Assembly: GCA_964016885.1 (NCBI GenBank)
Contig: OZ024740.1
Span: forward strand, 96,224,001 to 96,288,000
DNA: 64,000 nucleotides
Source: Eledone cirrhosa
Lineage: Eukaryota
Direction of reading: 5' to 3'
In this document: one piece after another, positions 3,010 through 49,599 of the stretch
Layout: every line of letters starts with the position of its first letter
Position numbering within the stretch: the stretch's first letter is position 1
The notes under the pieces: generated by a model
The model's database searches: none
Seen by the model: the letters and a program-made list of their open reading frames with translations, nothing else
What the model was told of the DNA's origin: nothing
Made by a program: the position numbers and the translations under genes

Positions 3010-3091
<82 letters not shown>

Positions 3092-3781
3092 TAAACAGAA
3101 TAGAAAATGCTGACAAATTGTTCACAGTGAAAAATAGTTTAATTAGGAATAAATGAGAATTAGTAATTGTATTGGTTAGTAATCAGTTTTGGTTATAAGT
3201 TTTACCGGTTGCGCATTTCTAAATGCTTTTCAAAAATAATTTTGAGATAGAGCGTCCGTAATGTTTGCTCTGATCTGATTAGTTTAGGGAATTCTACCTG
3301 TTTTTATCTTAAAAAAGTGGCTCCAGCGCTATTAATATTGGATTTTTGCGCCAATTCTTGTCGCAAAAATTCTTGTGGTCAAAAGAATTTTGATTGGTCG
3401 GTAGAGGTCATGTGAATGTAAAAAAATTGATTTTGCGCCAAGACTGAGAAATGACTCTTTCACAACAAATATGTGTGTGTGTGTGTTTGTGTGTAGTAGT
3501 AGTAGTAGTAAAGTGTTCGTTGTTGTGATAATGGTTAGCAGGGATGTGTGTGCGAACAGCAGCCTGTTGACAGTTCAAATGCCTATTAATACAAGTATGT
3601 GTGTGTGTGTATTGTCTGTGTGTGTGTGTGTGTGGGTGTGTATAGCAGAGTAATTCCTGGTAGAGGGATGGTCAGTAGCAATGTGTCTGTAAGTGAGTGA
3701 GGGATATTATAACATGTTAAAATATATTTTTCAGCTCTTGTCTTATACGGAGAAGTGTGTGTGTGTGTGTGTGTGCGTGTG

Positions 3782-3848
<67 letters not shown>

Positions 3849-4129
3849 TTGTGTGGGTGTGTGTGTAGCAGAGTAATTCGTGGTAGAGGGATGGTCAGTA
3901 GGAATGTATCTGTAAGTGAGTGAGGGATATTTTAACATGTTAAAAGATATTTTTCAACTCTTGTCTTATACGGAGAAGTGTGTATCTGTGTGTGTGTGTG
4001 TGTGTATAAGTTTCTTTGTATGTTAATGTACGCGTGTGTATGTGTGTGTATATATGTGTGTGTGTGTGTGAGAATATGTATGTGTGTGTGTGTGTGTGTG
4101 TGTGTGAGAATGTGTGTTTGTGTATGTTA

Positions 4130-6047
4130 AATAGATTAAAAACCGACAGAAACAATACAATTAAAAAAGCTGATAGAGGGAGTACAGTAGTCCAAATGGA
4201 GACAGAATTCTATATTAACTTAGCGCTCTCCACTTTGGAAAACGAAACACTAATAAAAGGCTGAACACTACAATCAACAGAAAATTATGAGAAACCTAAA
4301 AACTCTAATCAACCAATACAAAGAAGGACTCACTAACAAGGAATTCAGCTTCATCACAGACTTCACAAGTAAATGCAGCCTTTTCTACGGTATCCCTAAA
4401 GTACATAAAAGCGAATTAATAAGTAAGGCATGCAAGGAATCCACAGACATAGTCATCAATGTCCCCTCACCCAATGATCGATCTCAAATTATGACCTATA
4501 ATAGCAGGCCCCGCTTGCTAAACCCAACACCTTAGTAACTTCATTGATACCCTTCTCAAACCCTTTCTCAAACACATCAAAAGCTATATAAGGGACGACC
4601 TAGACATGCTCAATCACCTCCCTAATATGCCACTTTCTGAACAAACCCTACTAGTGACGTTCGATGTAGCCAACCTATACTCCAACAACCCCCACAACCT
4701 AGGAATAGAAGCTATCCAATTCTGGCTGGATAATTACCACAATGAACTCCCACAACGCATCAAAAAAGAATTCGTGATAGAGGGACTCAAAGTTATCTTG
4801 GAGAACAATTACTTCGTTTTCAATAACAAACCCTACATGCAGAGATCTGGGACCACTATGGGAACGAAAACAGCCCGCACTTCTTATGCCAACGTAGTCA
4901 TGGGATACCTGGAAATCACCCTCTACACTAAAGTCCTAAACAAATTTGGAAACACTCTCCACTTAAACATAGAAAGGAACTGGAAGCGATATCTAGACGA
5001 CTGCTTCATCCTTTGGCACGAAAACATCGAACAACTTAAAGAATGTCACACCCTTATAAATGGGCTCAACACGAATATTAACTTCACGATGGAATACAGC
5101 CATCAACAACTCCCCTTCCTCGACATCCTCATTAAGATACATAACACAAAAAATAGAAACAGACATATACTACAAGCCCACAGACTCCAAGCAATATCTT
5201 CCTTTCAACTCTTGCCACACTAGACACGTTAAAATTAATATTCCCTACAAATTAGCCAAGAGAATCTGTACTATAGTCTCCAATAAAAACACCTGCTACT
5301 TACGGCTACAAGAACTAAAGGACACACTCATAGGCAGGGACTACCCTGCATCACTAATTGACAATGGAATACAATGTGCCCTAAAACTCAGTACCCAGGA
5401 CCTTAGACACCCTAAAGTAAATCAACCGAAACTAAAAGCTATTCCACACATCTCCACACAGAACCCCCTCAACAATGAGGCCTTTGACACCATCCTCCAG
5501 AACATCCCTGTGTTGAAAAAGAACCATACAATGAACCAAATCCTACGCACACACGATATCATAAAGAGCAAAAGACAATCTAAGTCAAGAAAAACATCCT
5601 AACACATGCCAAAGTACCACCAACCACAACAACGAAACCCACAGTAAAAAAATGCGATAGACCCAACTGTGGCATTTGCATCAACCTAATAGAGGGTTCG
5701 GAATTCTATTTCAAAGAAGGACAACGTTTTATAGTAAAACACAATTTCACATGTGCATCGGAAAATCTAATATATGTATTAACTTGCTCAGGTTGTCGAG
5801 AACAATACATAGGCCAGACCAAAAACAGCCGCCAAGCATGATTGTCCATAGATCCCAAATTAAAATACGGGAATACAGGAAAATACCACTGAGTGAACAC
5901 ATTTATACCTGTGCCGCCCAAAATCATCCCAACTTCAGAATCTTTCTCCTCTACAAATTTAAAGATAATGCCACCCACACCCAGCGCATCAGCAAGGAAT
6001 CTTACTTTATTAACAAATACAGACCCCGTCTAAACACTTCTCCCTAA
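4130..6047 (+). pseudogene. PLE reverse transcriptase + C-terminal GIY-YIG endonuclease, frameshifted
   Basis: IKKADRGSTVV, FYGIPKVHK, LVTFDVANLY, GTTMG, WKRYLDD, LPFLDI, TDIYYKPTDS, SCH, C.RPNCGIC, NFTCASENLIYVLTCSGCREQYIGQT. Confidence 0.93.
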
Positions 6048-6133
6048 GACAAACCACAACATACACACGTCAACATACATAACCACATATAAACACAATG
6101 ACATACGTAAACACACATGTTCTATGGTGCAAC

Positions 6134-6203
<70 letters not shown>

Positions 6204-6451
6204 AGTGAATATATGTATATATATATATAGTGAATATCATTTCACACCTTTTATTGTTAAGGTTTTTGATATTCAATTGAGAGAATCGATTTTACTGAAA
6301 ATATCGAATAATGTACACCATTTTACCAGGAAAAAAATACTGGTCCACCCACACACACATTCTCACACACACACACACACACACATATATACACACACAC
6401 ATACACACGCGTACAGTAACATACGAAGAGACTTATAGACACTCACACACA

Positions 6452-6516
<65 letters not shown>

Positions 6517-6783
6517 TTCTCCGTATAAGACAAGAGTTGAAAAATAACTTTTAACATGTTAAAATATCCCCCACTCACTTACAGACACATTCCTACTGAC
6601 AACCCCTCTACCACGAATTACTCTGCTACACACACACACACACTTCTCCGTATAAGTCAAGAGCTGAAAAATATATTTTAACATGTTAAAATATCCCCCA
6701 CTCACTTACAGACACATTCCTACTGACGATCCCTCTACCAGGAATTACTCTGCTAGACACACACACACACGCACGCACGCACA

Positions 6784-6860
<77 letters not shown>

Positions 6861-7067
6861 ACACTTGTATTAATAGGCATTTGAACTGTCAACAGGCTGC
6901 TGTCGGACACACATCCCTGCTAACCATTATCACAAGAATTTTTGCAACACGAATTGGCGCAAAAAAAAATTTTAATAGCGCTGGACCCACTTTTTTAACA
7001 TAAAAACAGGTAGAATTCCCCAAACTAATCAGATCAGAGCAAACATCACGTACGCTCTATCTCAAAA

Positions 7068-7110
7068 TTATTTTTGAAAAGCATTTAGAAATGCGCAACC
7101 GGTAAAACTT
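7068..7110 (+). ncRNA. Minimal hammerhead-like motif with U3-A8 core and GCAA instead of GAAA (inverted copy 3199-3240)
   Basis: ttt-TTGAAAA-GCATT.taga.AATGC-GCAA-CCGG-TA-aaa; ACCGGT is palindromic. Confidence 0.55.
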
Positions 7111-8349
7111 ATAACCAAAACTGATTACTAACCAATACCATTACTAATTCTCATTTATTCCTAATTAAACTATTTTTCACTGTGAACAATTTGTCAGCAT
7201 TTTCTATTCCGTTTACCAATATATAATAACTTGTGTGTTACACCTCTATTCTTTTAACTATATATATATATATATATACATATATACATATACATTTATA
7301 TATATACATGTGTGTGTGTGTGTGCGGATGTGTGTGTATATATTTAGAGTTAGAGAGAGAGATACGTAGATATAGATTGGTGGATACTCATATACACACA
7401 CATACACCTATATACATATACACATATATATTCGTGTGTGTGCGTGTGTGTTTATACGTGTCTACATGTATGATGGGCACACTCATATTTACACACATGC
7501 ATACACATATAGGTACAAGTATGTTACCCTTTGATATGTTGATATATGTGACCGTTAACCCGTCATGAGTCTATACGCTTCACAGTTTAGAAAAAGGAAA
7601 TTCTCATCACTCTTTTGTTATTGTAGTTATATTTCCCTACATTTACTTTCCATTTAAATATTCTCTTTTCCATTTTTTTGTCTCATCACCCTCTCCTTTC
7701 TGCCATAGTTTCTAGTTTCTTTTCACCTTAGCATTGTTATTATTTTTGCTTTTTATATCAATCATACTATGGTATGTATTCTTGATGCGAACTGTACATT
7801 TTATTGACAGTTAATTCTTGATACTTAGATTTCATTCAATTTCATATTAACCATTTCGAATGAAATACACATCGCAGGTGCTTGCTGCTAATAAATTAAT
7901 CTATAGGTAGAACTTATATTCTGATTTAATTGAACTGATTGTAGACACAACTGAATATATATATATTTTTATTTTTTTTATTTTTGGAATTCTAGAGGTG
8001 TTGTCACTAGCATCCTACACCAACCGATGTAGCTGAATCGCCAAGATAGACAAGATGAGCTAATACTGTTTTCCAAACACCTTGCGTGAGACCTGCACCT
8101 GGGTCACTGTCGGTTGAGTTTTGTACATAATATCTGTCAAGCGAATCTGTTCTCAGACCTTCTGATCACATGTACTTAGTAATGGACCTGTGATTTAGTC
8201 ATTTGAAGATGACGTGGAGCTACCTGGAACGATTCTCCAATCTCTGAGCTACGCAGGCTATCGAGTAACGTTACTAAAATGATTCTTCGGTGGAATGCTA
8301 TTTCAGCCGCTTGTATTTACGATCGTATTTTTTCTGTCATTACCCAATA

Positions 8350-13759: not shown

Positions 13760-14139
13760 ATCACATTACATTAAGAAAAATGGTTTTCATGGCATATGCA
13801 ATTTCTAGTAAATTTATTTGTAACACATTTCATTTTATGTCTGACAGATGATTCTCTAAATAGTTTTTAAAGTGTTTTCCAATAATTCTCTACTAAATTT
13901 TGTGTATGTTATTGCCAAAAATAAAAAATAAATTTCCTACTATAGAAGTAATTACAAAATAATTTTGACGAGTTGTTAGTTTTATTTCAACTTACTATAT
14001 TTGTTCGTTGGTGGAAAATGTTTTTATATGTATAATTATGAGAAAATTATATCAATTTATTAATAATAGGAAATTGGTCTATATCAGTATTTCTTAAATG
14101 CTATATATTGTCAAATTTAAAGTCATATTCATATATTCA

Positions 14140-14281
14140 TATAGTCCAGAAATAGCCGTCGAAACGGCTTGAGCTGTGCCGTCGGGGTCATACTTTTTCC
14201 TATTTCTCACTCTACTACCTTAAGTATTGTGTACTCTGGTGCGTTATGGTCCATCTGGTTCCTCACCACAATTCCTTTGTT

Positions 14282-14377
<96 letters not shown>

Positions 14378-14585
14378 CGAAGGAAATATGGTAAGGAACC
14401 AGGTGGACCATAACGAACCCAAGTACTCAATACATAGGGTAGTAAAGTTGGTAATAGGAACGAGTAGTACCCCGACGGATGAGCTCAAGCCCTTTCAACG
14501 GCTAATTCTGGACTAAAATCATTTTAGTCCAGAATAGCCGTCGAAACGGCTTGAGCTCAGCCGTCGGGATCCTACTCGTTCCTTT
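14140..14585. mobile_element. Three truncated family-A 3' ends (HHR stem III half plus tail) around (TA)n
   Basis: AGTCCAGAA.TAGCCGTC-GAAA-CGGCTTGAGCTCAGCCG-TC-GGG at 14143 (+), ~14468-14514 (-) and 14527 (+). Confidence 0.85.
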
Positions 14586-14605
14586 ATATATATATATATA
14601 TATAT

Positions 14606-15017
14606 ATTGTTATATTTGGGGAGGGACATATTTGCGTAATATTGCCAGAATTAATAACAGAACACACTCACTGTTTGGTTGGTTTTCGCTTCTCGCTGTC
14701 TTTTATATATATATATCTGCGATCTAACTTACTCGGTCCTCAATGTTGCCATTGACTGACCGGCGGTCAAAAATAAAACAGATACAATATAGACACAAAC
14801 ACATATATATAGTTTACATAGTTAGTTAGATCGAGTAAGTTAGATCGCAGATATATATATATAAAAGACAGCGAGAAGCGAAAACCAACCAAACAGTGAG
14901 TGTGGTCTGTTATTAATTCTGGCAATATTACGCAAATATGACCCTCCCCAAATATAACAATATCTGTTTCGACACACGATTTCATATAAAAAACCTCGCA
15001 AAACTAATTCATCGCCG

Positions 15018-16275: not shown

Positions 16276-16355
16276 ACATATATACATATATATATGTAGG
16301 AGGTGAGTAATATTGTAGAACAATAAAATATATATATATATGTATATATATATAT

Positions 16356-19300
16356 AAATGAAAGGATTATAAAGGAAAATACAGTATGTTAGAACATCTT
16401 TATACAAAAGCACCTACGGACGTTTCGCCCGAAAATGGATCTCAAGGGCATACAAATCTTGAGAGTGTTCAGTACAGAACCGAGAAGGGATTTTAAGATG
16501 ATAATCACACCGAAGTTCATGTGTGATTCAAATAGACATGGTTATTTTTGTCACAGAGCATGGGTAGTAACTCTGACCGGTGTTTGAATAAATGTCTCCG
16601 TTCACATGATGATTGTTTTTCACTACTATTTTATGGGTGCCACTTTACTACTGCCTACTCGGGCCGGATCTAAGAGGCATAGTTGGTGTACAGATGTTTA
16701 GTTATTCAACCTGACCGCCGGCGCGTTATGGTAAAGTTCCATGAGGCAGAGCTGGCATTTCCTCTTGAAGTTGTAAGGTGTTGCCCTGCTGACAATTTCC
16801 CAGTATGTAGAGAAGCTGATGCTGGAGATGTCTTGTCTCCTTTGAGGAAAACCTGCTCAAGTTGATCAGAAACATTAAGTTTAATAAGAAACGCCGATGC
16901 AGTAATCCATTCTTAACATCCCTTGAAGCGTTCATCACTAAGATCAATAATGACCCACACATCTTCGTTACCTCTGACAAACCAAAGAAGCTGTATAAGT
17001 TGGACGTGAGCAAGTAAAAACAATTCATTTATAACGAAATACACAAAATGTATTAAAAAAAACACCCATTAGTACACTAAATGACATTAATATAATAGGT
17101 AAGGATATAGTGACTAGCTTAGACATAGATAAGTACACTAACCCATATGTCACTATGGCACCTAAATTATCTCTTAAGGATCACGAAGGTAACTTTGATG
17201 AAAGCCCCTCTATTACATTAATATGTCCCTCTACATCAGATATAGGCAGGATCAGCAAAGAGATCCTCGATAGAGTAATACATGAACTTAATAGCAAAGC
17301 TAAGGTTTTTCTCTGGAAGATCGACCAGGTCAAAATTAGTTCACGGAGTTGCCCGATAAGACAGCTCTAAAGTTCATCCAGTGTGACATTGACAGATACT
17401 ATGCTTCTATCTCCCCCATACTCTTAAAAACGGCCCTTGTTTTAGCTAGATCTAACACTAGCCTCACTAAAAATAGTGATAGATATAGTACTAGCAGCGC
17501 GTAGAACTATTATCCAGTTCGAGGGTTCCCATTGAAACAGAACCAACCGTCCTGATAACTTCGATATCACGATGGGGTCTAGTGACTCGGCGCAAGCGAC
17601 CGACCTGGTTTGAACATACCTCCTCCATTCGTTTAGGGACGAGATACCGGTCCTACAAGGAGGTGCATATAGGGACGACGCCCTATTTACCGTTAGGAAC
17701 CATAGCCTACGCAGGATAAAGAAGCTCACTCAGGTTCTTCAAATCATGCGGCTTATCCGTAACTATAGACTTCAACCACCAGATAGTCAACTTCCTAGAC
17801 GTGACCCTGGAGTTGGCTACGAGCCTGTACAAGTAATACCATAAGCCCGGCGATATTCTAGCACATATTAATGATGCATCCAACCACCCTAAGTCTACTC
17901 TCAACTCCATAGTATATAGCATATCCTATAGGATCTCGAGGCTATCCGCCAACGAGGACATCTTCAACGAAGCTGCTGACTACTACAATAAAGCCTTGGT
18001 GGATGCCGGATGTAACCGAATAATCTCCTACCTCCTTAACGCTGACTCTAGTAACCACCCCCAGCATATGTCTAATGTTATAGTAAGCCATACCTATAAC
18101 CAAATACGCAGCGGTCATGATAGAGTCAATAATTATAGTATAGAGAATTGCACTAAGAAACACGGCCGTAGCGTTAACTACTTGGGTGGTGGTGTAGAAG
18201 GACACCCGCATAATAAGGGTCATGATATGGGCAACGGTAGCTGCTGTAACCTACTAGAATTATTCCCTGCCTATAGAATTAACAATAGCGATGGCCTATT
18301 ACCTACACCCTCCAACCGGCGTTTAGCTACACGTAAACGTAACGCAAGGAAGGCGAGTGCATCCGAGCATAAAGCGCTGGGACATGCAGTAGGCTGCAAC
18401 ACATTAGCATCAATAAAAATGGATACCTAGCCAACACGACCCGTAAGAAGCCCACGGCTACGCGTAACCGCCAACGTAATCTTCCTTTCTCCCTACTCTT
18501 GGAGTGTGGCCTCTGATCTACCTAGAATATTCTTCGAAGCCTTAGAGAAGAATTTCCCACCCAACCATAAATACAGGAAAATCCCCAATAAGAACAATAT
18601 TAATATATCCTTCTCAACTACACCTAATCCAGCAGAGATCATAGGGATAATTAATTACAGTATACTCACGAAAACACGGCACAATAGCATAAGTAGGTCT
18701 AGACTTGACAGCAATCCTAATACCCTTAATGTTACCCTAGCAGCACCCGACAATGTTGGTGGTAGCTCCAACAGACGCAACCGACATAACGGCAGTAGAC
18801 TGGGGAGCATGCTGGTGACCTGTACGTGTCTCGAGGCGGCAACAGAAGGCGCTGTGGCGTGTGGGGTAATAATTGTACTACGCCGCGCGCCACAGGATAT
18901 AATAGTACTAACTACGGAGATAGTGGCAGTGGCGTGGATAATAACATAGGTAGTGATAGTTATACCCTTACTTATGGCACAAGGAGCCACTGAAGCTACC
19001 GCGGCCGACACTGCAAATGTCTAGACCAGGGAAGCCCTCCGCTCATGGGAAGTTGCCTGGCAGACAATTTTATTTATAGGTGCACTGTAACTAGCCATAA
19101 TAGCGTCAAGCATAATATAGGTGCCACCTCTAATTCGTCCAAAACTAGATTTCGAACGCGCACCATTCTTTTAGAAACAAGAAGTTAAGGTACTCCACAC
19201 CACAACATTAAAAGACTCCAACATCAGCTTCTCCACATACTGGGAAATTGTCAGCAGAGCAACACCGTACAACTTCAAGAGAAAGTGCCAGCTTTGCCTC

Positions 19301-19960
19301 ATGGAACTTTACCATATCGTAAGAGCACCCCTAGAGCTCATCAACAGCAGAGCAGAATCTGTGATAAAATGCGGACCCAGAATACAGCATTCCTTCTATG
19401 GTTGCATCACGGTTAAGACCTGAACACCATCAACTGGGTCCCACTGCACCAAACCACAACTCGGCGTTGGGCAGGTTGCATAACTAAACAGCTGTACACC
19501 AACTATGCCTCTTAGATCCGGCCTGTCTAGGCAGTAGTAAAGTGGCACCCATAAAATAGTAGTGGAAAACAATCATCATGTGAACGGATAATAGGCCATT
19601 CAGAGACATTTATTCAAAAACCGGTCACAGTTACTCCCCTTGCTCTGTGACACAAATAACCATATATGTTTGAATCAAAAAATAAACTTCGATGAGAATA
19701 TCATCTTAAAACACCTTCTGGGTTCTGTACTGAACACTCTCTAGATGTGTATGCCCTTGAAAATACCTTTTCGGGCGAAACGTACGTAGGTCCTTTTGCA
19801 TAAACACGTTCTAACAGCATGTATTCTCCTTTGTCATCCTTTCATTTGTAACGCTTCTGCTTATTTCCTTGCCCAATAAATATTAACGCTTGCGATATTT
19901 AACCCTATAGGCACTAGTATTGAGCTCAATTGCACCAACTTTTGGCAACTAACTATATGT
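16356..19960 (+). mobile_element. Hydra-like PLE with inverted pseudo-LTR
   Basis: 16356-16835 is the reverse complement of ~19210-19847. Degraded ORF ~16840-19423: SDK..KLYKL, LICPSTSDIGRISKEILDRV, FDITMGSSDSA, GAYRDDAL, FLDVTL, SNHP, KNFPPNHKYRK, YIGAT-like, CQLCLME. Confidence 0.9.
19749..19790 (+). ncRNA. Minimal U3-A8 hammerhead-like motif (inverted copy ~16414-16453)
   Basis: tatg.ccc-TTGAAAA(19757-63)-taccttttcgggc-GAAA-CG-TA-cgta; stem III ACGT cannot close intramolecularly. Confidence 0.55.
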
Positions 19961-20002: not shown

Positions 20003-20889
<887 letters not shown>

Positions 20890-20934
20890 CGTAAAATAAG
20901 AAAATTATAAAATTAACTTACTTAATAAAATATC

Positions 20935-21016
20935 ACTTCCAACTAATTAGTTTCTGGAATGGAATAAATATATTTTCCGAAGAAGATACAGTGAAGCATT
21001 CCGTCGTCAGGGAAGT
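20935..21016 (-). ncRNA. Type I hammerhead ribozyme
   Basis: Reverse complement of the 21834-21915 motif. Confidence 0.85.
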
Positions 21017-21458
21017 CTATTCTCATCTAGGTATCCAGGCAAATCGTGGACACTGGAAACTTATTAAAAAATAATTCAGTGGATAGAAAATAGTAAAGCG
21101 TGGACTGAATTCCTAGCCATTGAGAAAATCACTGCCTCTGCGTCGGTGGCAAATTCAAAAAGAATCAATCACGTGACATCGAGGTCAATCAGTGGAAAGT
21201 GATTTGCTAATAAGACAGCGGCCTGCCTGCTACCATAGCAGCAGTCATGGCCAATATTGCTCGACAAATAATTTGGAGATAATTATAAAGAATAAATATC
21301 TAGTAACATATATATATACATACAGATGCATATCAATGCTAGCAAATATATAGGTTTTGTCTTAGTAATTTTGTGGTTCAATGCATGGGGTTGCAGAACA
21401 ATAATATGAGAGACGTAAAATAAGAAAATTATAAAATTAACTTACTTACTAAAATATC

Positions 21459-21540
21459 ACTTCCAACTAATTAGTTTCTGGAATGGAATAAATATATTAT
21501 CCGAAGAAGATACAGTGAAGCATTCCGTCGTCAGGGAAGT
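21459..21540 (-). ncRNA. Type I hammerhead ribozyme (tandem copy)
   Basis: Same motif, 524 nt from the previous copy. Confidence 0.85.
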
Positions 21541-21833
21541 CTATTCTCATCCAAGTATCCAGGCAAAGCGTGGACACTGGAAACTTATTAACAAATAATT
21601 CAGTGGATAGAAAATAGCAAAGCGTGGACTGAATTCCTAGCCATTAATCACTTTCCACTGATTGACCTCGATGTCACGTGATTGATTCTTTTTGAATTTG
21701 CCACCGACGCAGAGGCAGTAATTTTCACAATGGCTAGGAATTCAGACCACGCTTTGCTATTTTCTATCCACTGAATTATTTTTTAATAAGTTTCCAGTGT
21801 CCACGCTTTGCCTGGATACTTAGATGAGAATAG

Positions 21834-21915
21834 ACTTCCCTGACGACGGAATGCTTCACTGTATCTTCTTCGGAAAATATATTTATTCCATTCCAGAAAC
21901 TAATTAGTTGGAAGT
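21834..21915 (+). ncRNA. Type I hammerhead ribozyme
   Basis: Stem I ACTTCC/GGAAGT; CTGACGA 21840-46; stem II GGAATG/CATTCC; GAAA 21896-99; stem III palindrome ACTAATTAGT; GUU site ending 21909. Confidence 0.88.
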
Positions 21916-22081
21916 GATATTTTAGTAAGTAAGTTAATTTTATAATTTTCTTATTTTACGTCTCTCATATTATTGTTCTGCAACCCCATGCATTGAAACA
22001 CAAAGGTACTAAGACAAAACCTGTATATTTGCTAGCATTGATATGCATCTGTATGTATATATATGTTACTAGATATTAATT

Positions 22082-22122
<41 letters not shown>

Positions 22123-22687: not shown

Positions 22688-23439
22688 TATATCTGTTAGA
22701 CACCCAGTGACAAACAACAGAGTGTTTTAATTCTGCGTGTTCTGACAAATATACGTAGCTTGTGATTAAAATATTCAAGGGGTTTCGCTGGCCGTGGTGA
22801 TCTCTGCCAAACATCTTTTGTAATGTATCGTCTTATTGGCTAATTTCATTGTCTTATTGGCTAATCAAACAATTAGAGTAATTGTTGTTCAAAAGCATCC
22901 GAAACTTTGTTTGCACGGTTATTTAATATTTCGCTTTCGAATCTTACTCCTGTATTTCGTCTTTAAACATCAAAAGATTTTTTATCGTTTTGATAAGTTA
23001 TATTGTTAATTTATATAAGAGTTTTTAAATTTATATTAACTATTTTTTTCAGTTTGTTATAACATACTTATAATATTGGCTGTATCATATATACTTGTAT
23101 ATTTGTCTATATTATTGTTCGTTTTATGTTAGATTATTTTATTATTATTATATTAGATTATTTGTTTATTATTACGTTAGGCTATTTCTACGTAATATTT
23201 AATTTTTATTAATCAACTATAACAATTATTATGTAAAATATATTTATTTAATATTGATTGTTTTTTGGAGTTGTTTATATTAAAAGTCTGAAAATTGTTA
23301 TACATCTTACAATACTATTTATAAGATCATTTATACAATAACAATTATATAATCTAATTACATTACAACGATAATTTATTATTAATATATATCATGTTTA
23401 ACTAGAGTTATTACAAATGTTGCCTTAAAAATATTAAAC

Positions 23440-23880
23440 TAGACCTGAAAAATGCGCAAGCTCAAAAGAGCCATATAATGTTATAATAAACCTTCAAAAG
23501 TGTGGGACTAGACTTGTTGCTCAATAATATACTAATCATTATCTATCGTACATTCTGTGGCATCCATTTATAAAAAAAGAGACACATAACGAACTCAATA
23601 CGACACGATAATTATTTAAGGGAATTTATAATATAGAATTCGGTTTACGTGCATTTCGCATTAATCATTACTAGACATCTAATATGAGATATTGAACATT
23701 AGCTTAAATAATTATCGTGTCTTCTAGGGTTTGTTATGAGTCTCTTTTTTATAAAAGGATACCACAGTGCGTACGATAGATAATGATTACAATATATTTG
23801 AGCAAACTCTACTCGCACACGTTTGAAGGTTTAAAATAACATTATGTAGCTCTTTTGAGCTTGCGCATTTTTCAATCTAG
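23440..23880. mobile_element. MITE/foldback with ~180 bp inverted repeats
   Basis: 23440-23620 is the reverse complement of 23703-23880; no HHR core seen. Confidence 0.75.
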
Positions 23881-23884
23881 CATA

Positions 23885-23938
<54 letters not shown>

Positions 23939-24082
23939 ACTATAATACTTGAGTGCGTTGGAGTTAAACACACTCGTCGTATTAGAGAAATGACAGTATA
24001 AGATATTGCTCAAAGTAATTCAACAGAGCCGAAGAATTATAAAAAATAAAGAAATAAACCTTCAATACATCAAAAGTATTTA

Positions 24083-24129
24083 TTAGCTGACAGTGTTTCG
24101 TCCCATTAATAGGGACTCATCAGAGCAAG
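24083..24129 (-). ncRNA. Minimal type I hammerhead ribozyme
   Basis: Exact reverse complement of the 26620-26665 core. Confidence 0.9.
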
Positions 24130-26291
24130 GAAAGAGATAAGAAGTATTAACGGCCAGAAGAAGACAAAACTCAGAAGAAGAGGGAATTTATATCTATGAA
24201 AACTTAGGAAAGACATCATGGAAAGATATGCTAAAGCAAAAAGTGTGCATTTGCAAATATAGACTATAGGGCAAGAGAGCGAGTAATATGTCAGACCCAC
24301 GTTGAAAGTACAGTATAAGACAAATACATGAAACACAACATGGTAATACAATGTGAGAATTATAATATGATATAGAATATAATATAATGGATAATAAGAA
24401 ATAAAAAGCTTAATATATGTATATCCATATATATACACATTTACACAAACACATACTAACACTTATTTAAATATTTCAATATAAATATACTTATTATAAT
24501 ATAATAATCATTATAATAGAATAATCACCCTGACAGTGTGCATAAACAATACCAAAAACAATGCAATAATATACTGACATTAAAATATATATAAAACTAC
24601 ATCATACGTATCATTTAAGGTCAACAAATTGTATATAAAGTTGTTCACAGGGTAAGAAAAAATATCATGTAAAAATAAAGTATGGTGAAAAAATATATAT
24701 AAATATATATAATATTGACAATAAATATACAGAGGTATAGGCAGTTCAAATTCATAAAATATTACAAAACAGTACCTCAATATCGGATATATATTTATAA
24801 TTCAATTACATGAAAATAATATGACATATTAATGTTAATATTACAATGGCAGACACACAGAATCAATGGAAAATGCTTAAGACATATTTACGCGATGAAT
24901 ACAAGGAGACATATCAGGAGACAATAACAAATGATAGGAGAACAGACAGCATGTGGTAGTAAAAAAAAATAAAATAAAATAAAACAAAGAACAAAAACAA
25001 AAAGAAGCACAGACACGTAGTTGTTACAAGTCATTAGGTAAATATAGATTATATTACTATTATAAATCAAAGAATTGAATTGAAAACCTTATTAAATTAA
25101 TTAATACTAAAATTGTTTAAAAGACATCATGGGTCACTTCACACGGAACAGAATCCAAGTCATCAAAGTCGAATAAAATCAAGATATTCCAATAAAAAAG
25201 CTAAAAGATCTATCAGGATATATTACTATCCGTGCTGACGAATTACGTTATCAGAGAAAAAAAACTCTAAATAAAACTATGGTAGACCAATGGGAACAGA
25301 AAAAGTGAAACTATGGAGGGTAGGAAGGAGCATAAAAGTAAACATTTATATATAATCAATAAGGTGAATATTAGGTGTAGAAAGGACGAGGTTCATTAGC
25401 CTTAGATGTAGGAGACTAAAATTAAACTATTCAATAAGATACCCTCCAACCAGGGATGAAAATAAAGATAGAAACTTATAAGGCGACAATGGTGAGTAAA
25501 AATTTAATAATGGTTAAGATGATAGATAGGGTAAGATAGCTAAGAAGACTATGAAAACTAAAAACGAAAAACCGTAGAAAACTAATAATGGTATTAATAA
25601 TGAACTAAAACCAAAGAGATAAGGAAATATAGCAGCTAATGGATGCGGTTTAAACTACCAGAGTTTTTAAGTCTATAATAGAAGTGCTTTAGGTCTATAA
25701 TAGAAGTGCTTGTTTTTGTTTTTGTTCTTCGTTTTAGTTTTTTTTTTCTTTTACTACCACATGCTGTCTGTTTTCCTATCATCTGTTATTGCCTCCTGAT
25801 ATGTCTCCTTGTATTCATCGCGTAAATATGTCTTAAGCATTTTCCATTGATTCTGTGTGTCTGCCATTGTAATATTAACATTAATATGTCATATTATTTT
25901 TATGTAATTGAATTATAAATATATGTCCGATATTGAGGTACTGTTTTGTAATATTTTATGAATTTGAACTGCCTATTCCTCTGTATATTTATTGTCAATA
26001 TTATATATATTTATATATATTTTTTCACCATACTTTATTTTCATATGATATTTTTTCTTACCCTGTGAAAAACTTTATATACAATTTGTTGACCTTAAAT
26101 TATACGTATGATGTAGTTTTATATATTTGTTTAATGCCAGTATATCATTCCATTGTTTTTGGTATTGTTTATGCACACCGTCAGGGTGATTATTCTATTA
26201 TAATGATTATTATATTATAACGAGTATATTTATATTTAAATATTTAAATAAGTGTTAGTATGTGTTTGTGTAAGTAAATGTGTATATATAT

Positions 26292-26337
<46 letters not shown>

Positions 26338-26619
26338 GGCTTTTTATTTCTTATTATCCATTATATTGTATTCTATATCATATTATAATTCTCACATTGT
26401 ATTACCATGTTGTGCTTCATGTATTTGTCTTATACTGTACTTTCAACGTGGGTTTGACATATTACTCGCTCTCTTGCCCTATAGTCTATATTTGCAAATG
26501 CACACTTTTAGCTTTAGAATATCTTTCCATGATGTATTTCCTAAGTTTTCATAGATATAAATTCCCTGTTCTTCTGAGTTTTGGATTGTTCTGGCCGTTA
26601 ATACTTCTTGTCTCTTTCC

Positions 26620-26665
26620 TTGCTCTGATGAGTCCCTATTAATGGGACGAAACACTGTCAGCTAA
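26620..26665 (+). ncRNA. Minimal type I hammerhead ribozyme
   Basis: gct-CTGATGA-GTCCC.tattaat.GGGAC-GAAA-CACTG-TC-agc: canonical core and GUC site (26657-59). Confidence 0.92.
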
Positions 26666-26719
26666 TAAAGACTTTTGATGTATTGAATGCTTCTTTGTTT
26701 ATTTTTCATAAGTTTTATA

Positions 26720-26778
<59 letters not shown>

Positions 26779-27074
26779 AGGTAGATTGAGAAATCAGTGA
26801 ATACCTGAGTTACCTAACCTATATATGTGTAATATTTCAACGAGCATATGTAATACGGAAACATGCTTTTTGTCGTCAGCTAGAGAAACAACTACTTTGC
26901 TTGTAAGGATTCCATAACAACTGAGAAATGCCTACTAATAAAAAAGAAGCGTATCATCCAGAGGACACATAATTACTGAGAAATGTAAATTTGAAAAAGT
27001 ACAGGGGACAAAATCATGCTTAACATTCGAGATATTTCTATTTGCAGATGACTATTTAATAATTGTTTCTTTGT

Positions 27075-28881: not shown

Positions 28882-29240
<359 letters not shown>

Positions 29241-32496: not shown

Positions 32497-34115
32497 TCTT
32501 TATATATATAAAAGCGAGGATGTGTGTGTATGTGTACAACTTTGGAAACCTAAGGCTTTTTACAATTACCAATCGAATTTGACCAAATTTTCTGTGGACG
32601 TTGCACACGTCGCTAAGATGGTCACATCACTAACATTATTCCTATCGACTCACCCTGAGCAATAACAAATCGATATCAAAATTATCGGTAGCAAAATTGA
32701 TGTAAGGGAGACAACCAACTTTATTGACAATCCTTATAAAAGAGTGAGATATGGAGACCTTCGTTTTCAATTTTAAAACAACAATCATCGTCGGACGAAA
32801 TTTCAGAAATATAAACATCAGATTCATTTGAAGATAAATCACTAATATTATCGTTTGTTTCTTGTTTATTCTTTGTTGCACTTTCAAAGTTAAAAAAACA
32901 CTTGTTGTTTTAACTTGTTTCACTATATTATGTGATAATTCACTATATTTTCGCGTTAAAGCCTAATCTCACAGCAGTCTCGAATTGACGAGATTTTGAT
33001 GATGGTTTGTTTATTTTTAAAACAATCGTTATAGGACTTTCGATTCAAACCATTGGGACCTACAACTTTTACATTTTTAAAACTTTCATAAGCCATGTTG
33101 TTACAAAAACAAATTTGTTGCACTTTCAAAGTTAGAAAAACACTTGTTGTTTTAACTTGTTTCACTATATTAAGTGTTAATTTCCACGGTAAGGGCCTAA
33201 TCTCGCAGCAGACTTGAATTAACAAGATTTTGATGAGGTTTTTTTTTATTTTCAGAACAATCCTTATGAAACTTTCCATTCAAAATATTGGGACCTACAG
33301 CTTTTACATTTTTAAAGTAATTCCGTCCATATTTGAGACAGGCATTATCTATGCTTCCAGCTCTATTCGTACACATCAAACATTTCGGCCAATGAAGGAA
33401 CATACTGTACAGGATTCTTCCTGGATGTCGACGGATATATAAATCTATTGATACTGTATGTGATCCACATGATGCGGTCAACTATCCAGTTGAATTTCTA
33501 GATTCTTTAAATCCTCATATTTTACCTCCTAATACATTAGTTCTGAAAGAGGGAACGCCAGTTATTTTGCTGAGAAATATCTCTCCTCCAAAACTATGCA
33601 ATGGTACACGCCTTGTGGTTAAAATCTGTCTTAGTATTGACGCTACCATTCTATCCCGATGTGGAAAAGGCGAGGAAGTGATAATAACAAATATTAGCCT
33701 GACTACATCAGGCGTGGATACTACCTTCTCCTTTCGCCGAACCCAATTTCCCCTTTGTGTTGCCTTTGCGATGTCCATGAACAAGTCGCAAGATCAAAGT
33801 CTGTTCGTCACTGAAATTCACTTGGATGAACCTTAATAATAACATTCGATTCGTTTGCAATTATTCAAACAAGACTCAATTTTATAGCCATGTCAGTAGA
33901 ATGAACACTTTATTCTTGCTCTTGTGTTGGTATGTGAACAGAACTGCAGACACTAATGTTTCTGAGTATCACCCTTCATCAGTACAGCTCACTGTTCACT
34001 TGCCAAACTGTCAGACAAAATATTGGTTGTGTAAAATGGTCCAATAAATTTATGTTAGCAATATTAAGTTCTCCACGCATTTGTATATCTCCAATTCCAT
34101 TCAAGGGAACAGCTA
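32497..34115 (+). mobile_element. Helitron remnant with PIF1-like helicase C-terminus (~33340-33830)
   Basis: YPVEFL.SL, L.LKEGTPVILLRNISPPKLCNGTRL, FRRTQFPLCVAFAMSMNKSQ.QSL; TC-TTTATATATATAAAAG 5'-like end; CTAG at ~34112; 33834-34015 duplicated at 32127-32310. Confidence 0.8.
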
Positions 34116-35031
34116 GATGATGTAAAACGGAGTATAAGAATCAAAATGAAAATCCGAAGTCAAGGTAAAATTTCAATCATTTAATCACGACATATATTTC
34201 AATAAGAGATAGTTCGATTGTGACGCCATGATCGATTATCACTGATCTCATCAATGAAAATGAATTGTCTTCAAACTTTTGTTATGAGGGAGAAAAATAA
34301 CGATGTTCTCTCACAGAATTCATTCCCTCACATGAAGACACACAAGTCAGAGAAACGGCGACTGCTATTAACTTCAGTTGAGGACATATAAGTTGATTTA
34401 TATCGCTGCAAAAGACGCTGGACATCAATCAAATCTGTAGGGATATAGTTAATGTGAGTGGGTACACACACACTCCACACCCACATACATCGGCTCGAGA
34501 TCAAAGAAAAAGATATATACATATATATACACACATCAACACAGTATTAAAAAAAATGTAGAATTATAAAAAGGTCACAGTTAGTGTGGATGGGTACGCA
34601 CACATTCTCACACATACCGAAGCAATGTCAGAGAAAAAAAAAACAAATATAAGAATGTACCAACACAGCATTCACCGAAATTTAGTTCACAAAGCAACAG
34701 AAGCTATGTCGGTCAAATCTCAATTTGACGATGTAAATTGGAAATATTGGGTTAACTAAGTGTGTACACACACACGTACACACACAAGCAAGCAAGTAAG
34801 GTTACCTTCCAAAAATCCTGCGGAATGTTTTCGAGGTTCTATGTTGGCAGTTGCTGACAAAATCAGTTCTCCTATTAATTAATAGGGGACCGCCTCTAAT
34901 AATATTAAAGGTTTCAGCTATACATAAATTGCAGACGACAGTGCTGCCGTTATGAGTTTGGGCTGAGCAAACTATGGACCAGGATAAGGAGTTCTCTATA
35001 TTCTGATGTTTAAGCTTTCAGACTAATATAC

Positions 35032-35062
<31 letters not shown>

Positions 35063-35063
<1 letters not shown>

Positions 35064-35774
35064 CGCTTTAAGCGTTTCTATTGTCCTAATAACTTATTTT
35101 AGTTATTATCGCTCCAACGTGAGGTATATCATTTTTAATGCGATGAAATACCCATCATCGTTATGGTAAATCACTGATGAGGGACTCATTTTATAACATG
35201 TTATCCATGTGCAACCAGCAGTATTCTTCTCACCCATATTTTTCATGTATTTAGCCAAACTGCAATTCTGTGTTTCTCTCTTTCTCTCTTACTGCTCCCT
35301 AGTTATCTCTGTTTCTCTTACTTTCTTTCATCCCCTCTGCCATGTCAGTTAACTCTTTCTCTCTACTGACCTCTTCCTCGCACTCCCACTCACTCAGTCC
35401 CTGTTTCTCCCCTTCTTTCTTCCTCCCGTTCGCTGGGAAAACGGTTTTCATTCTTTCTAACACCGGATTCGATGGCGAAAGGTCTGATTCTGACTCGCTC
35501 ATATATTCACACAGCTTATGCTGAAAGAATAACTATGTTGCTTGTGTTTATTTCCATCTTCGGTTAGCTTCCCCCTGTGTTGTTTACTTGTCTCACTCGC
35601 TTTACGCGATTCTATTGTCCTAATAACTTATTTTAGTTATTATCGCTCCAACGTGAGGTATATGACTTTTAATGCGATGAAATACCCATGATCGTTTGGT
35701 AAATCACTGATGAGGGACTCATTTTATAACATGTTATCCATGTGCAACCAGCAGTATTCTTCTCACCCATATTT

Positions 35775-35777
<3 letters not shown>
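35063..35777. mobile_element. Non-coding 1.3x tandem element (534-nt unit, ~180 bp direct repeats) in (TA)n (family E)
   Basis: 35063-35243 repeated at 35597-35777; diverged relative at ~56255-56495. Confidence 0.85.
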
Positions 35778-36239
<462 letters not shown>

Positions 36240-36407: not shown

Positions 36408-37297
<890 letters not shown>

Positions 37298-37571
37298 CAA
37301 ATCAATAACAATGTGTTCAAATATCAGGCGATCATTTACAATGAAATAGCTCGAAGAAAGAGTATTTCTGAGCCGTGTAATATAGGTTAACATAAATCAA
37401 TATATTTGATGAACACAAATATCCTCATATTTATGTTTGTATTGCAAATGATCAAGTTAACTAGATAGAAATATACTAATAATAATATGGTCATTTGCAA
37501 ACATAAATATGAGGATATTTGTGTTCATCAAATATATTGATTTATGTTAACATATATACATATATATATAT

Positions 37572-38559
37572 ATCGGGTCTATCTTCTAACATACAAGTAT
37601 TTAAGGAACACGCCGAGTACTGCGATAACGCCCTTAGTAAAGCAGGCTACCTCAACAAAATAGAGTACATAGATGGGAACAATCAAAACACCCAAAATAA
37701 ATCCCACATAGGTAGATATAATAACACAACACCAAACCACACTTACTACCATAGTATGCACACCAGTAAACCAACAAACAAAACTAATAGAAAGCGATGC
37801 AAAGAGTACTTATGGTATAACCCCGAATACAATAGCTCCATTAGTACAAATTTACCAGTACTCTTCTTTAAAATAATTAAAAGACATTTTCCCACATCAC
37901 ACAAATACCACAAAATCCTAAACCCTACCACTATAAGACGGTCATACTCTACAGCGTTAAACCTTAAACAACACATAAAAAAGATCAATACTAGAAGGTT
38001 AAACGAAAACACTAAGAACTTAAGTACAAAGAACACAAAAAAAACAGTAGACAATACACTACAGAACATAAATAAACCACACCTAAGTTCGTCCGCAATA
38101 CTACTCCAGAGAAAACCCAACGTACACAACTGTAACTGCACCTATCCTGACAACTGCCCCCTCGGCAATAACTGCCTGGAAAAAAATATTATTTATAAGT
38201 GTACCATTAAATCCGGAGGCAACGAGTGGTATTACGTGGGATCAACGGCAACATCGTTTAAATCTCGATTGTATAGGCATTCTTACTCAATAAAACACCA
38301 GAGCCAAAGAAATGTAACAACTTTAGCAGAAAAAGCTTGGACGCTCAGGGATAGCGACCAAAAGTTTACCCTAAAATGGGAAAAATTAGCTAAAACCCAA
38401 AGCTTTTCCAGGAGCCAAAATTTCTGCAAATTGTGTAATCTTGAGATTTATTACATAATCACACACAAGAAGAAACTGCTGAATAACAGAATTGAACGAA
38501 CATTATTCTGCCGTCACAGAACTAAAACCCTTTTTTCCCACTACAAGCCGAACATTTGA
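37572..38559 (+). CDS. 5'-truncated but uninterrupted Hydra-type PLE ORF (RT thumb, linker, GIY-YIG EN)
   Basis: ISGLSSN, ALSKAGY, WYNPEY, RHFPTSHKYHKILN, CNC....CPL...CL, IIYK..YVGST...FKSR, CKLCNLE, LLN.R.E...CRH. The N-terminal ~18 aa of the predicted ORF come from flanking repeat. Confidence 0.88.
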
Positions 38560-41151: not shown

Positions 41152-41199
<48 letters not shown>

Positions 41200-41202
<3 letters not shown>

Positions 41203-43170
41203 AACGAGTAGGACCCCGACGTCTGAACTCAACCCGTTTCGACGGCTAATTCTGGACTAAATGAACATGTTTATCCCGGTATATGAATAGCAGAGGTTAT
41301 CAGGGGGTAATTCCATATATGATAAAAGTGATTGTCACAAGGATTAGTTAAAAGTTTGTTGTTGAGACACATAATTCTATCATGGCAATTTATGGAAGGT
41401 AGGGGTAGCTGAAATTGCCAGTAGAAGAAATAGGGAGAGGGTGTGGAGGAAACCCAGTCGTGCGTTGATAGTGCCAACTACAACAGGGCAGGAGGTCAAG
41501 CAAGTATACTAGGGAGGGGGAGGAAGTCGAAACAATAAGTAAATCAATATGGAGTAAATATATAGAAGAATACCAAGAATGTTAAAAAGATAAAAAAAAC
41601 AATTTTGGTTACTATTCCCTAACCAGAGTCACCAAGTCTCTCGCTGGTACTGCTATACTATAGAAAAGTTTACTAGGTGGGACGGAATTGTAGTGAGACC
41701 ATTTTAAATGTTAGTAGTAATCAACCGAGTATATCTTACGGTGACAGGTCAACAAGTGGGGGCCAAAATACTAAATAAACTACCACGAAATAATAATTCA
41801 GAGTCCCGATACTAATACGACATAATTGTTTCTTCCCTAGGCACAAGGGCAGCAACCACCCAATGCAAAAAGAAACTAATACGAAATAATAATTCAGAAT
41901 CCCCAAAATGAATACTAATAATATCTCTAAGTGTGCCGCTACGATACAAACATTCTAGTGCAAACTAGATAAATGCTCGTACGAAGTATATGAAAAATTT
42001 GATACGGAAAATTAATTCAGAATACCCCAACACTCCCCACCCCCCAAAAATAAATACCGATATACGAGAAATTAAAGCAGAGATACCACTAAGAAATGTA
42101 GAAAGGACGGAAATGGGGCAGCAATCGGATAAGAAAGCAAGTATCTGGGGTCTATCACATCTGCTGTAAAAAGCGGAGTCTGCCAATTCTATCACAGAAT
42201 AGGGGATGGGGGTGGGGGTACTGAGGCTACAAAGGACCGAGAGGCTGCCTCGGGTGGGCGAGAAAGTGAAGAGGTCGACTACAAAGAAGGAGGACTGGGG
42301 TGGAAGGACTAGCAAGGGATGGGGGAAGAAGGAAATATATAGGAAACGATAAAAAGATATAAAAGAACATCTTACGTCTACCTTTGCAAGCAGGGGTTAC
42401 CCATTACAAAGTCGGCACGTGGGGTGTTACAGCCCTTGTCTACCCCACGCGTCATTGTGGGGTTTGAAGGGGCGGTAAGTCCTACGCAATCTGTGTTTGC
42501 ATGCAGTTACCAGTTACTAGGGTAGAAACCATTCTTTCGTATTAGTATCGGGACGGTGAATTATTATTTCGTAGTAGTTTCTTTAGTATTTTGGCCCCCC
42601 ACTTGTTGACCCGTCACCGTAAGATATATTCGGTGGATTACTAATACCCCTTAACAGGGTCTCATTATAATTCCGTCCCACCTAGTAAACCTTTCTTTAG
42701 TCTAACAGTACCAGTTAGAGACTTGATGGCTGTCCTTCGGTTATAGTAACCAGAAATTGTTTTTTATGTTTAATTGTTTTTTTAACATTCTCCGTATTTT
42801 TCTATATATTTACCCCATACTGTTTTACTTATTGTTACGACTTCCTCCGCCTCCCCCTCGCTAGTATACTCCCTTGACCTCTTGCCCTGTTGCAGTTGGC
42901 ACTATCAACGCACGACTGGGTTTCCTCCACCGCATCTGCCTCTTTCTTCTACTGGCAGGTTCAGCTACCCCTTCCTTCCACAAATTGCCATGTTAAAATT
43001 ATGTGTCTCAACAACAAACTTTTGACCAATCCTTGTGACAATCACTTTTACCATATATGAAATTACCCTCTGAGAAGCTCGGCTATTCATATGCCAGTAT
43101 AAACATTTTCATTTAGTCCAGAATTAGCCGTCGAAACGGCTTGAGCTCAGCCATCGGGGTCCTAATCGTT

Positions 43171-43172
<2 letters not shown>
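41200..43172. mobile_element. 2 kb family-A foldback in (TA)n with outward HHRs
   Basis: Arms ~41200-41820 and ~42538-43172; HHR-like motifs at 41208-41312 (-) and 43062-43166 (+); SINE 3' fragment at ~41821-41867. Confidence 0.9.
43062..43166 (+). ncRNA. Type I hammerhead-like motif with long stem II (family A)
   Basis: accct-CTGAGAA-gctCGGCTAttc...gaatTAGCCGtc-GAAA(43133-36)-cggct.tgagctc.agcca-TC-ggggt. Confidence 0.65.
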
Positions 43173-43206
<34 letters not shown>

Positions 43207-43221
43207 CATATATATATATAT

Positions 43222-43255
<34 letters not shown>

Positions 43256-44090: not shown

Positions 44091-44131
<41 letters not shown>

Positions 44132-44135
<4 letters not shown>

Positions 44136-44602
44136 CAATTTAAAAAAATATATGATCAACACTAATGTGTTTTTTTTTGCAAAATGACAATAATTTTTTA
44201 ACCAGATAGAAATACCTTAATTCAAGTACATATAGTCCGTCTGTATCGATCTAGAAAATATTAAATATTAAATCCATACTTACAGACTTAAAATGGCAAC
44301 TGCCATTTTACGTCTGTTGTATATATATATATATAGGAACGATTAGGACCCCGACGGCTGAGCTCAAGCCGTTTCGACGGCTAATTTTGGACGAAATGAA
44401 AATGTTTATACTGGCATATGAATAGCCGAGCTTCAGTTGCCATTTTACGTCTGTAAGTATAGATTTAATATTTATATTTTCTAGATCGATACAGACGGAC
44501 TATATGTACTTGAATTAACGTAATTCTATCTGGCTAAAAAATTATTGTCATTTTGCAAACAAAACACATTAGTGTTGATCATATATTTTTTTAAATTGTA
44601 AT
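44132..44602. repeat. 170 bp inverted repeat enclosing a truncated family-A end
   Basis: 44132-44301 is the reverse complement of 44434-44602; family-A fragment at 44335-44433. Confidence 0.85.
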
Positions 44603-44659
44603 GTAATGCTCAGAAGTATCTTTCTTAGAGCTTAATATTTGTAACTGACTACTAAACTG

Positions 44660-46416
<1,757 letters not shown>

Positions 46417-47302: not shown

Positions 47303-47438
<136 letters not shown>

Positions 47439-47439
47439 T

Positions 47440-47990: not shown

Positions 47991-48428
47991 AAAACTGGAA
48001 CGAACAATGAACCAAAACCAAATTCCTATGTACTCTAAAGAGAACAACCTACCTAAACCCATTTCTTAAATAAATAAATTACCTCCTGTCATTTCGCTCT
48101 CCCCCATTTCTCTCTCACTGACCATCCTGAATTACCTCCGCCTGCATATTAACTCTCTAAAAAGGGAAATCATATCAAATCCCAGACTACCGTTTGCCTC
48201 CATCGTGGATCGACTAAGCACACTTGCCATAATAACACATTTTGAACTGCTTATCTTCAAGAACTATGCCTGTAAATTATATTATTCTTTCTTTAACATT
48301 ACCTTATTATGTCCCACATTACCTCCCTTCTTTTTCTTTTCTCATTTCGCTTCAAAAACCTTGTTTGTAAATAATACAGTTTGTAAAAAAAACAGTTCTC
48401 TGGCTTAAATCAGAGAGATAGAATCAGA

Positions 48429-49547: not shown

Positions 49548-49599
<52 letters not shown>

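Follow-up and report, generated by a model that had tools for sequence, protein, structure and literature searches.

A 2.8-kb foldback with a hammerhead motif in each arm, most likely an ordinary inverted insertion of a Penelope-like element

The window, a 64-kb stretch of DNA, is AT-rich and eukaryote-like, with many (TA)n, (CA)n and (CT)n runs. Within it, blastn matches two arms to each other in inverted orientation (24037-25010 against 25706-26711, 92% over 1009 columns), with a spacer of ~695 nt between them. A first-pass annotation had described a 2.8-kb foldback with a hammerhead ribozyme on each ~1 kb arm, and this description holds, as the blastn match is joined in each arm by a hit to the Rfam model RF00163 (19.6 bits) and to a structural descriptor. 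Across the ungapped columns the arms differ by 43 substitutions in 971 (4.4%; identity 95.6%), 23 of them transitions and 20 transversions, and the 38 gap columns lie mostly in a (TA)n expansion of the right arm near 26290-26333. Two identical runs longer than that of the hammerhead, of 108 and 64 nt, are both situated away from it. The features of the locus are as follows.

23882..23937, unstranded: (TA)n microsatellite of the left flank, the likely target (sequence)
23944..25684, minus strand: longer copy, 1.74 kb, with its 3' end at 23944 and 5'-truncated at 25684, comprising the left arm and the whole spacer
23944..24031, minus strand: ~90-nt 3' extension in the left copy only, a possible PLE 'tail' (the arm alignment ends at 24032-24037)
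24037..25010, minus strand: left arm (blastn, alignment)
24083..24129, minus strand: type I hammerhead of the left copy (RF00163 19.6 bits, descriptor), predicted cut between 24089 and 24088
25011..25684, minus strand: the 'spacer', which continues the longer copy upstream and is non-coding in every test
25668..25711, unstranded: head-to-head junction, with a 22-nt tandem duplication and 1-nt microhomology (sequence)
25706..26716, plus strand: shorter copy, 1.0 kb, forming the right arm, with its 5' truncation at the position corresponding to 25010
26619..26665, plus strand: type I hammerhead of the right copy (RF00163 19.6 bits, descriptor), predicted cut after 26659
26622-24/26660-62, 26625-31, 26632-36/26644-48 and 26649-52, plus strand: helix I, core, helix II and GAAA of the right hammerhead
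26720..26762, unstranded: (TA)n microsatellite of the right flank (sequence)

The two copies are not symmetric. The outer end of the family, which had been placed at 23935, lies at 23944, and the left copy extends ~90 nt beyond the right one at its outer end. At the inner side, an inverted 5'-truncated copy adjoins the 5' end of the longer copy, head to head, as is characteristic of insertions by Penelope-like elements (PLEs); the junction carries the tandem duplication 25668-25689 and 25690-25711, with one mismatch. The (TA)n runs on both sides, which are also found beside 23944 in other copies, fit the bias of PLEs towards AT-rich/(TA)n targets, and a target-site duplication is unreadable within (TA)n. 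To the left of the foldback, and separated from it by only a (TA)n run, is a 467-nt imperfect palindrome (23426-23892, 77%) with no hammerhead and no second copy in the window. A short AT-rich piece between two (TA)n runs (49549-49640) is similar to the right outer end (26674-26768) at 84% over 96 nt, microsatellite making up much of the match, and is possibly a tiny 3'-end fragment of a related family.

Both hammerheads lie ~50-90 nt inside the outer end of their arm and read outwards. Their score is under the RF00163 gathering score of 34, and no Rfam match anywhere in the 64-kb window attains a gathering score. The structural descriptor, which demands the core, a helix II of at least 4 bp and a helix I of at least 3 bp, finds three sites in the 64 kb (the two foldback hammerheads and one at 49333) and none in 60 block-shuffled windows, and the motif is therefore real. 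The earlier word 'textbook' overstates it, given the 3 bp of helix I and a helix III of 2 bp and a loop of 3 nt, set within a near-palindromic 7-mer whose self-duplex is worth -1.6 kcal/mol; helix II consists of 5 bp and a loop of 7 nt. A type I hammerhead with a minimal or palindromic helix III near the 3' end is a further mark of a PLE-type insertion. In the folding model, the forced monomer fold comes to -5.9 kcal/mol against minimum-energy folds of -14.0 (right) and -10.6 kcal/mol (left), and among single stretches that were folded, none but 26590-26700 (z=-2.65) gave a significant hammerhead fold.

The hammerhead probably needs a same-strand partner, which is absent at this locus, and is predicted to be inactive as a monomer. 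The available text of PMC4209133 states that the minimal hammerheads of PLE repeats need a second copy on the same strand, a single minimal motif being without cleavage, and that of PMC11167929 that a PLE hammerhead cleaved only with the PLE protein and was dispensable for insertion in vitro. It had further been proposed that a read-through transcript would carry one sense hammerhead and its own antisense mask; the geometry is as proposed, and is true of any inverted PLE insertion, but the mask explains nothing that needs explaining. Since a transcript through the locus would carry one sense hammerhead only, inactivity would be expected without it. The first-pass annotation also noted that the core is identical in both arms while neighbouring bases have diverged. 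This stands locally (0/47 mismatches in the hammerhead against 10/96 in its 50-nt flanks, p=0.016, with a flank width of our own choosing) but not against the whole arm (0/47 against 43/924, p=0.11), and 12.8% of all 47-column windows of the arm are free of mismatches. We regard the identical core as weak evidence of selection, which is not significant on the wider comparison. In the family to which the arms belong, the commonest letter at 24112 converts the closing C-G pair of helix II to U-G.

Long inversions are common in this DNA, with 20 inverted alignments of at least 200 nt within 5 kb in the window, at ~15 places by our own grouping. One neighbour is a PLE at ~17 kb from the foldback:

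3089-7218: decayed PLE with RT and GIY-YIG and a CX4CxxC linker (Neptune/Nematis-type)

It retains an ORF relic (4124-6047), with relatives up to 62% identical, most of which have RT or GIY-YIG Pfam domains. Behind the relic comes a non-coding 3' end of 1.17 kb, of which a truncated copy lies inverted at 3089-4123; the outer 289 nt of the inverted 3' ends are 95.5% identical, and the ends are TA-rich. A second copy (44765-46316) has the same long 3' end. Neptune/Nematis-type clades are said to carry a hammerhead. The descriptor finds none in PLE 3089-7218, which we therefore treat as an analogue of the foldback family and not as a relative.

The window has several further elements. At 16353-19850, PLE relics (17035-19400) stand between inverted arms of ~400 nt, the outer parts of the arms bearing a decayed hammerhead-like motif for which the fold test is not significant. 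A second foldback of the same shape (41155-43222) has 700-nt arms that are 86.5% identical, a 677-nt spacer and (TA)n outside; its terminal motif of ~65 nt, a GAAA-containing hairpin with a doubtful hammerhead-like core, recurs at 10 places in the window, often as inverted pairs (sites include 2567-2887, 14133-14588, 29081-29215, 41195, 43040 and 44330). Two 3' fragments of another PLE family, comprising the GIY-YIG end, are located at 48387-49540 and 61436-62500; the first has the intact type I hammerhead at 49333, ~150 nt past the stop, and a decayed counterpart lies at 62444. Searches turned up no full-length relative of either PLE relic, 48387 or 37513. A 1077-nt direct repeat (35026-36102 and 36509-37573, 96%) lies just upstream of the PLE relic 37513-38559, and a Pif1 helicase 2B-domain fragment (33396-33836; PF21530, E=5e-14) is probably a Helitron relic. 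Further palindromes or inverted elements, 0.35-1.4 kb long and bordered by (TA)n on one side or both, are found at 20039-22122, 49657-50653, 59209-59619, 44129-44605 and 14604-14963.

The foldback had been reported to be ORF-less and to have no RT/EN trace, and our searches bear this out. Its longest stop-to-stop frame has 122 codons. Open frames of 118/122 codons that end in the hammerhead were considered as a gene and rejected because the arms, compared over the last 98 codons, differ by 9 non-synonymous codons and 1 synonymous codon. We built a 754-position PLE profile, which covers one clade best, on the 55 proteins of 650-830 aa among 87 relatives of the neighbouring PLE, and ran it against the six-frame translation of the whole window, stops being replaced by X; it finds nothing at E<=1 in the six frames of 23900-26800. 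Elsewhere in the window the profile is positive at that neighbouring PLE, at its relatives 44765-45150 and 47430-47894, and at six more distant relics:

441-794, 1447-1719, 17753-17971, 37774-38328, 48756-49088 and 61799-62131: distant PLE relics by profile

The 87 PLE proteins give no tblastn match to the foldback at E<0.05. Pfam gives 0 matches in 6/6 foldback frames, a result that by itself says little because Pfam also missed all the decayed PLE fragments of the window. One plus-strand frame of the spacer has 13 stops against 24 and 28 in the others (P=0.095, shuffle), and 12 listed family variants show no clear synonymous bias in any frame. A spacer frame with weak resemblance to the PLE 'ADK' motif (E=0.47) has 0 matches among 1.84 billion proteins, this being the one of the six frames searched. 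Downstream of the hammerhead, where the pLTR plus tail of a PLE would contain the start of the ORF, there is again no match to the PLE profile; the N-terminal parts of PLE proteins show little conservation, and an intron might lie in between. An autonomous EN+ PLE has a single ORF with telomerase-like RT and GIY-YIG; no such ORF was found at the foldback locus, and for this reason we do not file the locus as one. The matches to miRNAs proved to be (TA)n/(TG)n runs.

Public reads allow the locus to be compared with other copies. Four of the seven public runs listed match part of the stretch, all from one study, with a best share of 0.27 of sampled words; among the runs listed there are no matching RNA data. 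We aligned four of the seven to 23940-25800 at 85% likeness, namely contigs from one sample (X1 and X2, 634 and 533 records), a smaller set of 50 records (X4) and 2286 RAD reads (X5). Most records are only 90-95% alike or less, and they therefore represent other copies of the family. The contig comparison rests on 24 of 1243 pieces, 24 of 292 loose ends and 40 of 262 variant rows among the matches listed. Diverged contigs cover 23944-25684 over its whole length, and single contigs link arm to spacer (24766 to 25059, 24912 to 25034): arm and spacer are one dispersed multi-copy family. Since (TA)n-like loose ends occur before 23944 in all four runs, 23944 is the family's common end.

Summed contig depth, which is a rough guide only and not a copy number, is very uneven along the element. 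Its median over the three terminal bins (23940-24128) is 36.9k in X1 and 22.6k in X2, compared with 863 (X1) and 526 (X2) for the arm body and, in the same order, 490 and 443 for the spacer; the hammerhead end is thus at ~40 times the depth of the arm body in X1 and X2, an excess that we also give as 20- to 40-fold, and in X1 the depth steps from 20.8k at 24007 to 37.6k at 24014. The ratio of arm to spacer medians is 1.8 in X1 and 1.2 in X2, and the means are about equal (915 and 1091 in X1; 725 and 699 in X2). The copies share their 3' end and are 5'-truncated, as in PLE-type insertions. Among the RAD reads, 181 diverge behind 24109 and 539 behind 24127, so that the terminal module 23944-24128 is shared with other upstream sequences. 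Exact-pattern scans for the family continuation and the hammerhead end gave 0 matches in metagenome contigs, and a scan of viral contigs also gave 0; little animal DNA is expected in either.

At the inner end of the longer copy, the family continues past 25684: at least two contigs of X1 and at least four of X2 carry on beyond this point with sequence absent from the window. Among the matches listed, no contig crosses the junction into the right arm, although one may exist among the remainder of the 1243 pieces. It follows from these two observations that the left copy has been truncated, and the inversion appears to be specific to this site; the earlier treatment of the 2.8-kb foldback as the element itself is not upheld.

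If the foldback were nonetheless the mobile unit, of foldback or MITE-like type and with terminal inverted repeats of 1 kb, or if it had been kept in order to produce a hairpin RNA masking its own ribozyme, its long inverted arms and TA-rich flanks would be accounted for, as would the X1 median ratio of 1.8 and the locally more conserved core. A foldback or MITE-type DNA transposon has symmetric terminal inverted repeats and is multi-copy as a whole unit, including its internal junction. Here the ends differ by ~90 nt, and the listed contigs leave the window sequence at 25684 instead of entering the right arm. The excess at the hammerhead end fits 5' truncation, the conservation of the core is not significant against the whole arm, and long inversions of this kind are, as counted above, common in the window. 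We therefore consider either version very improbable.

The letters of the arms bear on their origin. Of 40 listed variant rows we kept 33, the seven dropped having an X1 share of <=5%, and 18 are comparable in both arms. At 9/9 listed sites where the arms differ, the right arm carries the family-majority letter, so those changes are private to the left arm. Of the nine listed sites with matching arms, five show a letter other than that of the family majority, the X1 share of the letter found in both arms being 0% at 24227, 6% at 24112, 22% at 24608, 36% at 24592 and 49% at 24581. These shared minority letters fit a single template, from which two copies of one source would have been made and then decayed separately.

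A fold-back chimera of the assembly is barely credible in view of these differences. It is true that at 25664 and 25670 all aligned X1/X2 depth differs from the letter of the window, the contigs concerned ending by 25685, so that no aligned X1/X2 contig has the letters of the locus there, and that the matching runs share so few of their sampled words with the stretch. A chimera would leave its arms near-identical, however, and these differ at 43 sites and by a microsatellite expansion, with the left-arm differences private relative to the family. A later inverted duplication, at the DNA level, of part of a single older copy would also give arms that share minority variants, and the small tandem duplication at the junction would suit it. 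We judge it quite improbable, given that the right arm stops at the element's own 3' end by (TA)n with no flanking DNA of the left copy, that both breakpoints lie inside the element, and that other PLE loci of the window show this layout too.

Because arm and spacer form one family, the hammerhead end is in excess and other copies continue past 25684, we read the locus as a pair of truncated copies, and we put at about 85% the probability of one PLE-type insertion in which a 1.74-kb copy and an inverted 1.0-kb copy, both 5'-truncated, were joined head to head. The foldback is genuine, and a type of insertion already known accounts for it; most likely it is an ordinary one, in a layout on record for PLEs. 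According to PMC8557442, 5'-truncated inverted copies are common in PLEs, with an optional tail of 30-40 nt at one end; the available text of PMC3846280 gives head-to-head as the most frequent inverted form and favours self-priming, and that of PMC11167929 describes cleavage and extension of both strands, with two initiation sites accounting for a one-sided tail.

Starting from the observed geometry, the single dispersed family, its continuation past 25684 and the shared minority variants, we infer the steps of insertion from the anatomy of the locus and the literature. The endonuclease would have nicked a (TA)n target, and reverse transcription would have begun downstream of the hammerhead, copied 1.74 kb and stopped early. 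A second early stop would have given the 1.0-kb copy on the plus strand, joined 5' end to 5' end with the first; the inverted arm may have arisen when the first cDNA folded back on itself, or both nicked strands may have primed two RNAs from one source locus. After insertion the arms would have drifted apart by 4.4%. The hammerheads would be passengers of the family's 3' terminal repeat, and the foldback would have no function of its own. Counting against this reading are the failure of every search to link RT/EN sequence to the foldback family, the X1 median arm/spacer ratio of 1.8, which is also expected of a two-armed unit, the one-sided extension of ~90 nt in place of 30-40, the lack of a descriptor hit in the long-UTR neighbour 3089-7218, and the 1.55-kb gap from hammerhead to truncation, which far exceeds the ~0.15 kb between ORF and hammerhead in PLE 48387-49370.

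What kind of element was the source? The first-pass annotation was right both to link the locus to PLEs and to pose the alternative of an unusually long 3' UTR or a long non-autonomous element, which concerns the at least 1.55 kb of non-coding sequence that the family has upstream of its hammerhead. We lean slightly towards a source family that encodes RT/EN further upstream, behind a long 3' UTR. Since the family runs past 25684, an ORF may lie further up; a real PLE ORF in the window precedes a 1.17-kb non-coding 3' end in two copies, and in the available text of PMC3846280 Pen1_Av has 0.9-1.5 kb between ORF and pLTR.

The same insertion mechanism could have acted on a long (>1.74 kb) non-autonomous element, a sub-case of the preferred explanation that we hold to be possible though unlikely. 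Such an element would consist of a captured non-coding body and a terminal hammerhead module, mobilised in trans by a PLE. The missing coding trace over 1.55 kb upstream of the ribozyme agrees with it, as do the roughly flat depth of the body with a steep drop at the hammerhead and just upstream of it, and the occurrence of the terminal module on several bodies, suggested by the X5 divergence behind 24109 and 24127. Capture between pLTRs (PMC3846280, available text) and non-autonomous PLE derivatives (PMC8557442; bioRxiv 10.64898/2026.07.22.740005, the latter in its available text) are on record. We give about the same probability to the full proposal of a dispersed protein-free retroelement of more than 1.74 kb, moved by PLEs and sharing its module with unrelated bodies, as a long non-tandem counterpart of animal retrozymes. 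Among the papers listed by our searches, which cover few subscription papers and not Repbase, no title or abstract opening describes a kilobase-long, dispersed, non-tandem, PLE-mobilised hammerhead element of animals.

As an ordinary truncated inverted insertion of PLE type, the foldback is of minor importance, except as a clean case where a single template accounts for both arms and the two truncation points are legible. Should the family prove never to be joined to an ORF, the non-autonomous hammerhead elements of animals would extend from short tandem retrozymes to kilobase-long dispersed ones, and a terminal ribozyme module would be shown to suffice for mobilisation in trans. If, further, the protein-free proposal is true, inverted double insertions would be ready-made 1-kb hairpin loci, which could give rise to small RNAs directed at all the elements using the module.

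Non-LTR retrozymes (bioRxiv 10.64898/2026.07.22.740005; PMC7229834) are, in the available text, non-coding like the foldback and carry a type I hammerhead, with a proposed origin from PLE pLTRs. They are arranged as head-to-tail tandems with a hammerhead in each unit, whereas the foldback has its ribozymes on opposite strands, one same-strand hammerhead in each direction and no tandem copy in the window. Because head-to-tail units are required, it is not a retrozyme by the definition in the available part of the preprint. In Schistosoma mansoni, Cercyon (PMC4209133, available text) likewise has two type I hammerheads on opposite strands with an unstable, near-palindromic helix III, and these dual minimal hammerheads are read by the authors as truncated PLEs. 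They differ in being 100-700 bp apart with a helix II of 7-8 bp, compared with 2.5 kb and 5 bp in the foldback. Pen1_Av of Adineta vaga (PMC3846280, available text) resembles the foldback family in its long non-coding stretch, of 0.9-1.5 kb from the ORF to the 3' pLTR; each of its copies has a spacer of its own, made up of captured host DNA, and its pLTRs are mostly direct, whereas the body of the foldback family is common to many copies. The closest parallel is provided by the inverted insertions of EN+ PLEs such as Penelope/Poseidon, Neptune and Nematis (PMC8557442; PMC3846280, available text). The foldback departs from them in that its locus has no ORF, its hammerhead is preceded by at least 1.55 kb of non-coding sequence, its arms measure 1 kb instead of ~0.2 kb and its extension is ~90 nt instead of 30-40 nt. 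It shares with them 5'-truncated copies placed head to head, a hammerhead near each outer end, an extension at one end only, a (TA)n target and a strong excess of the terminal piece.
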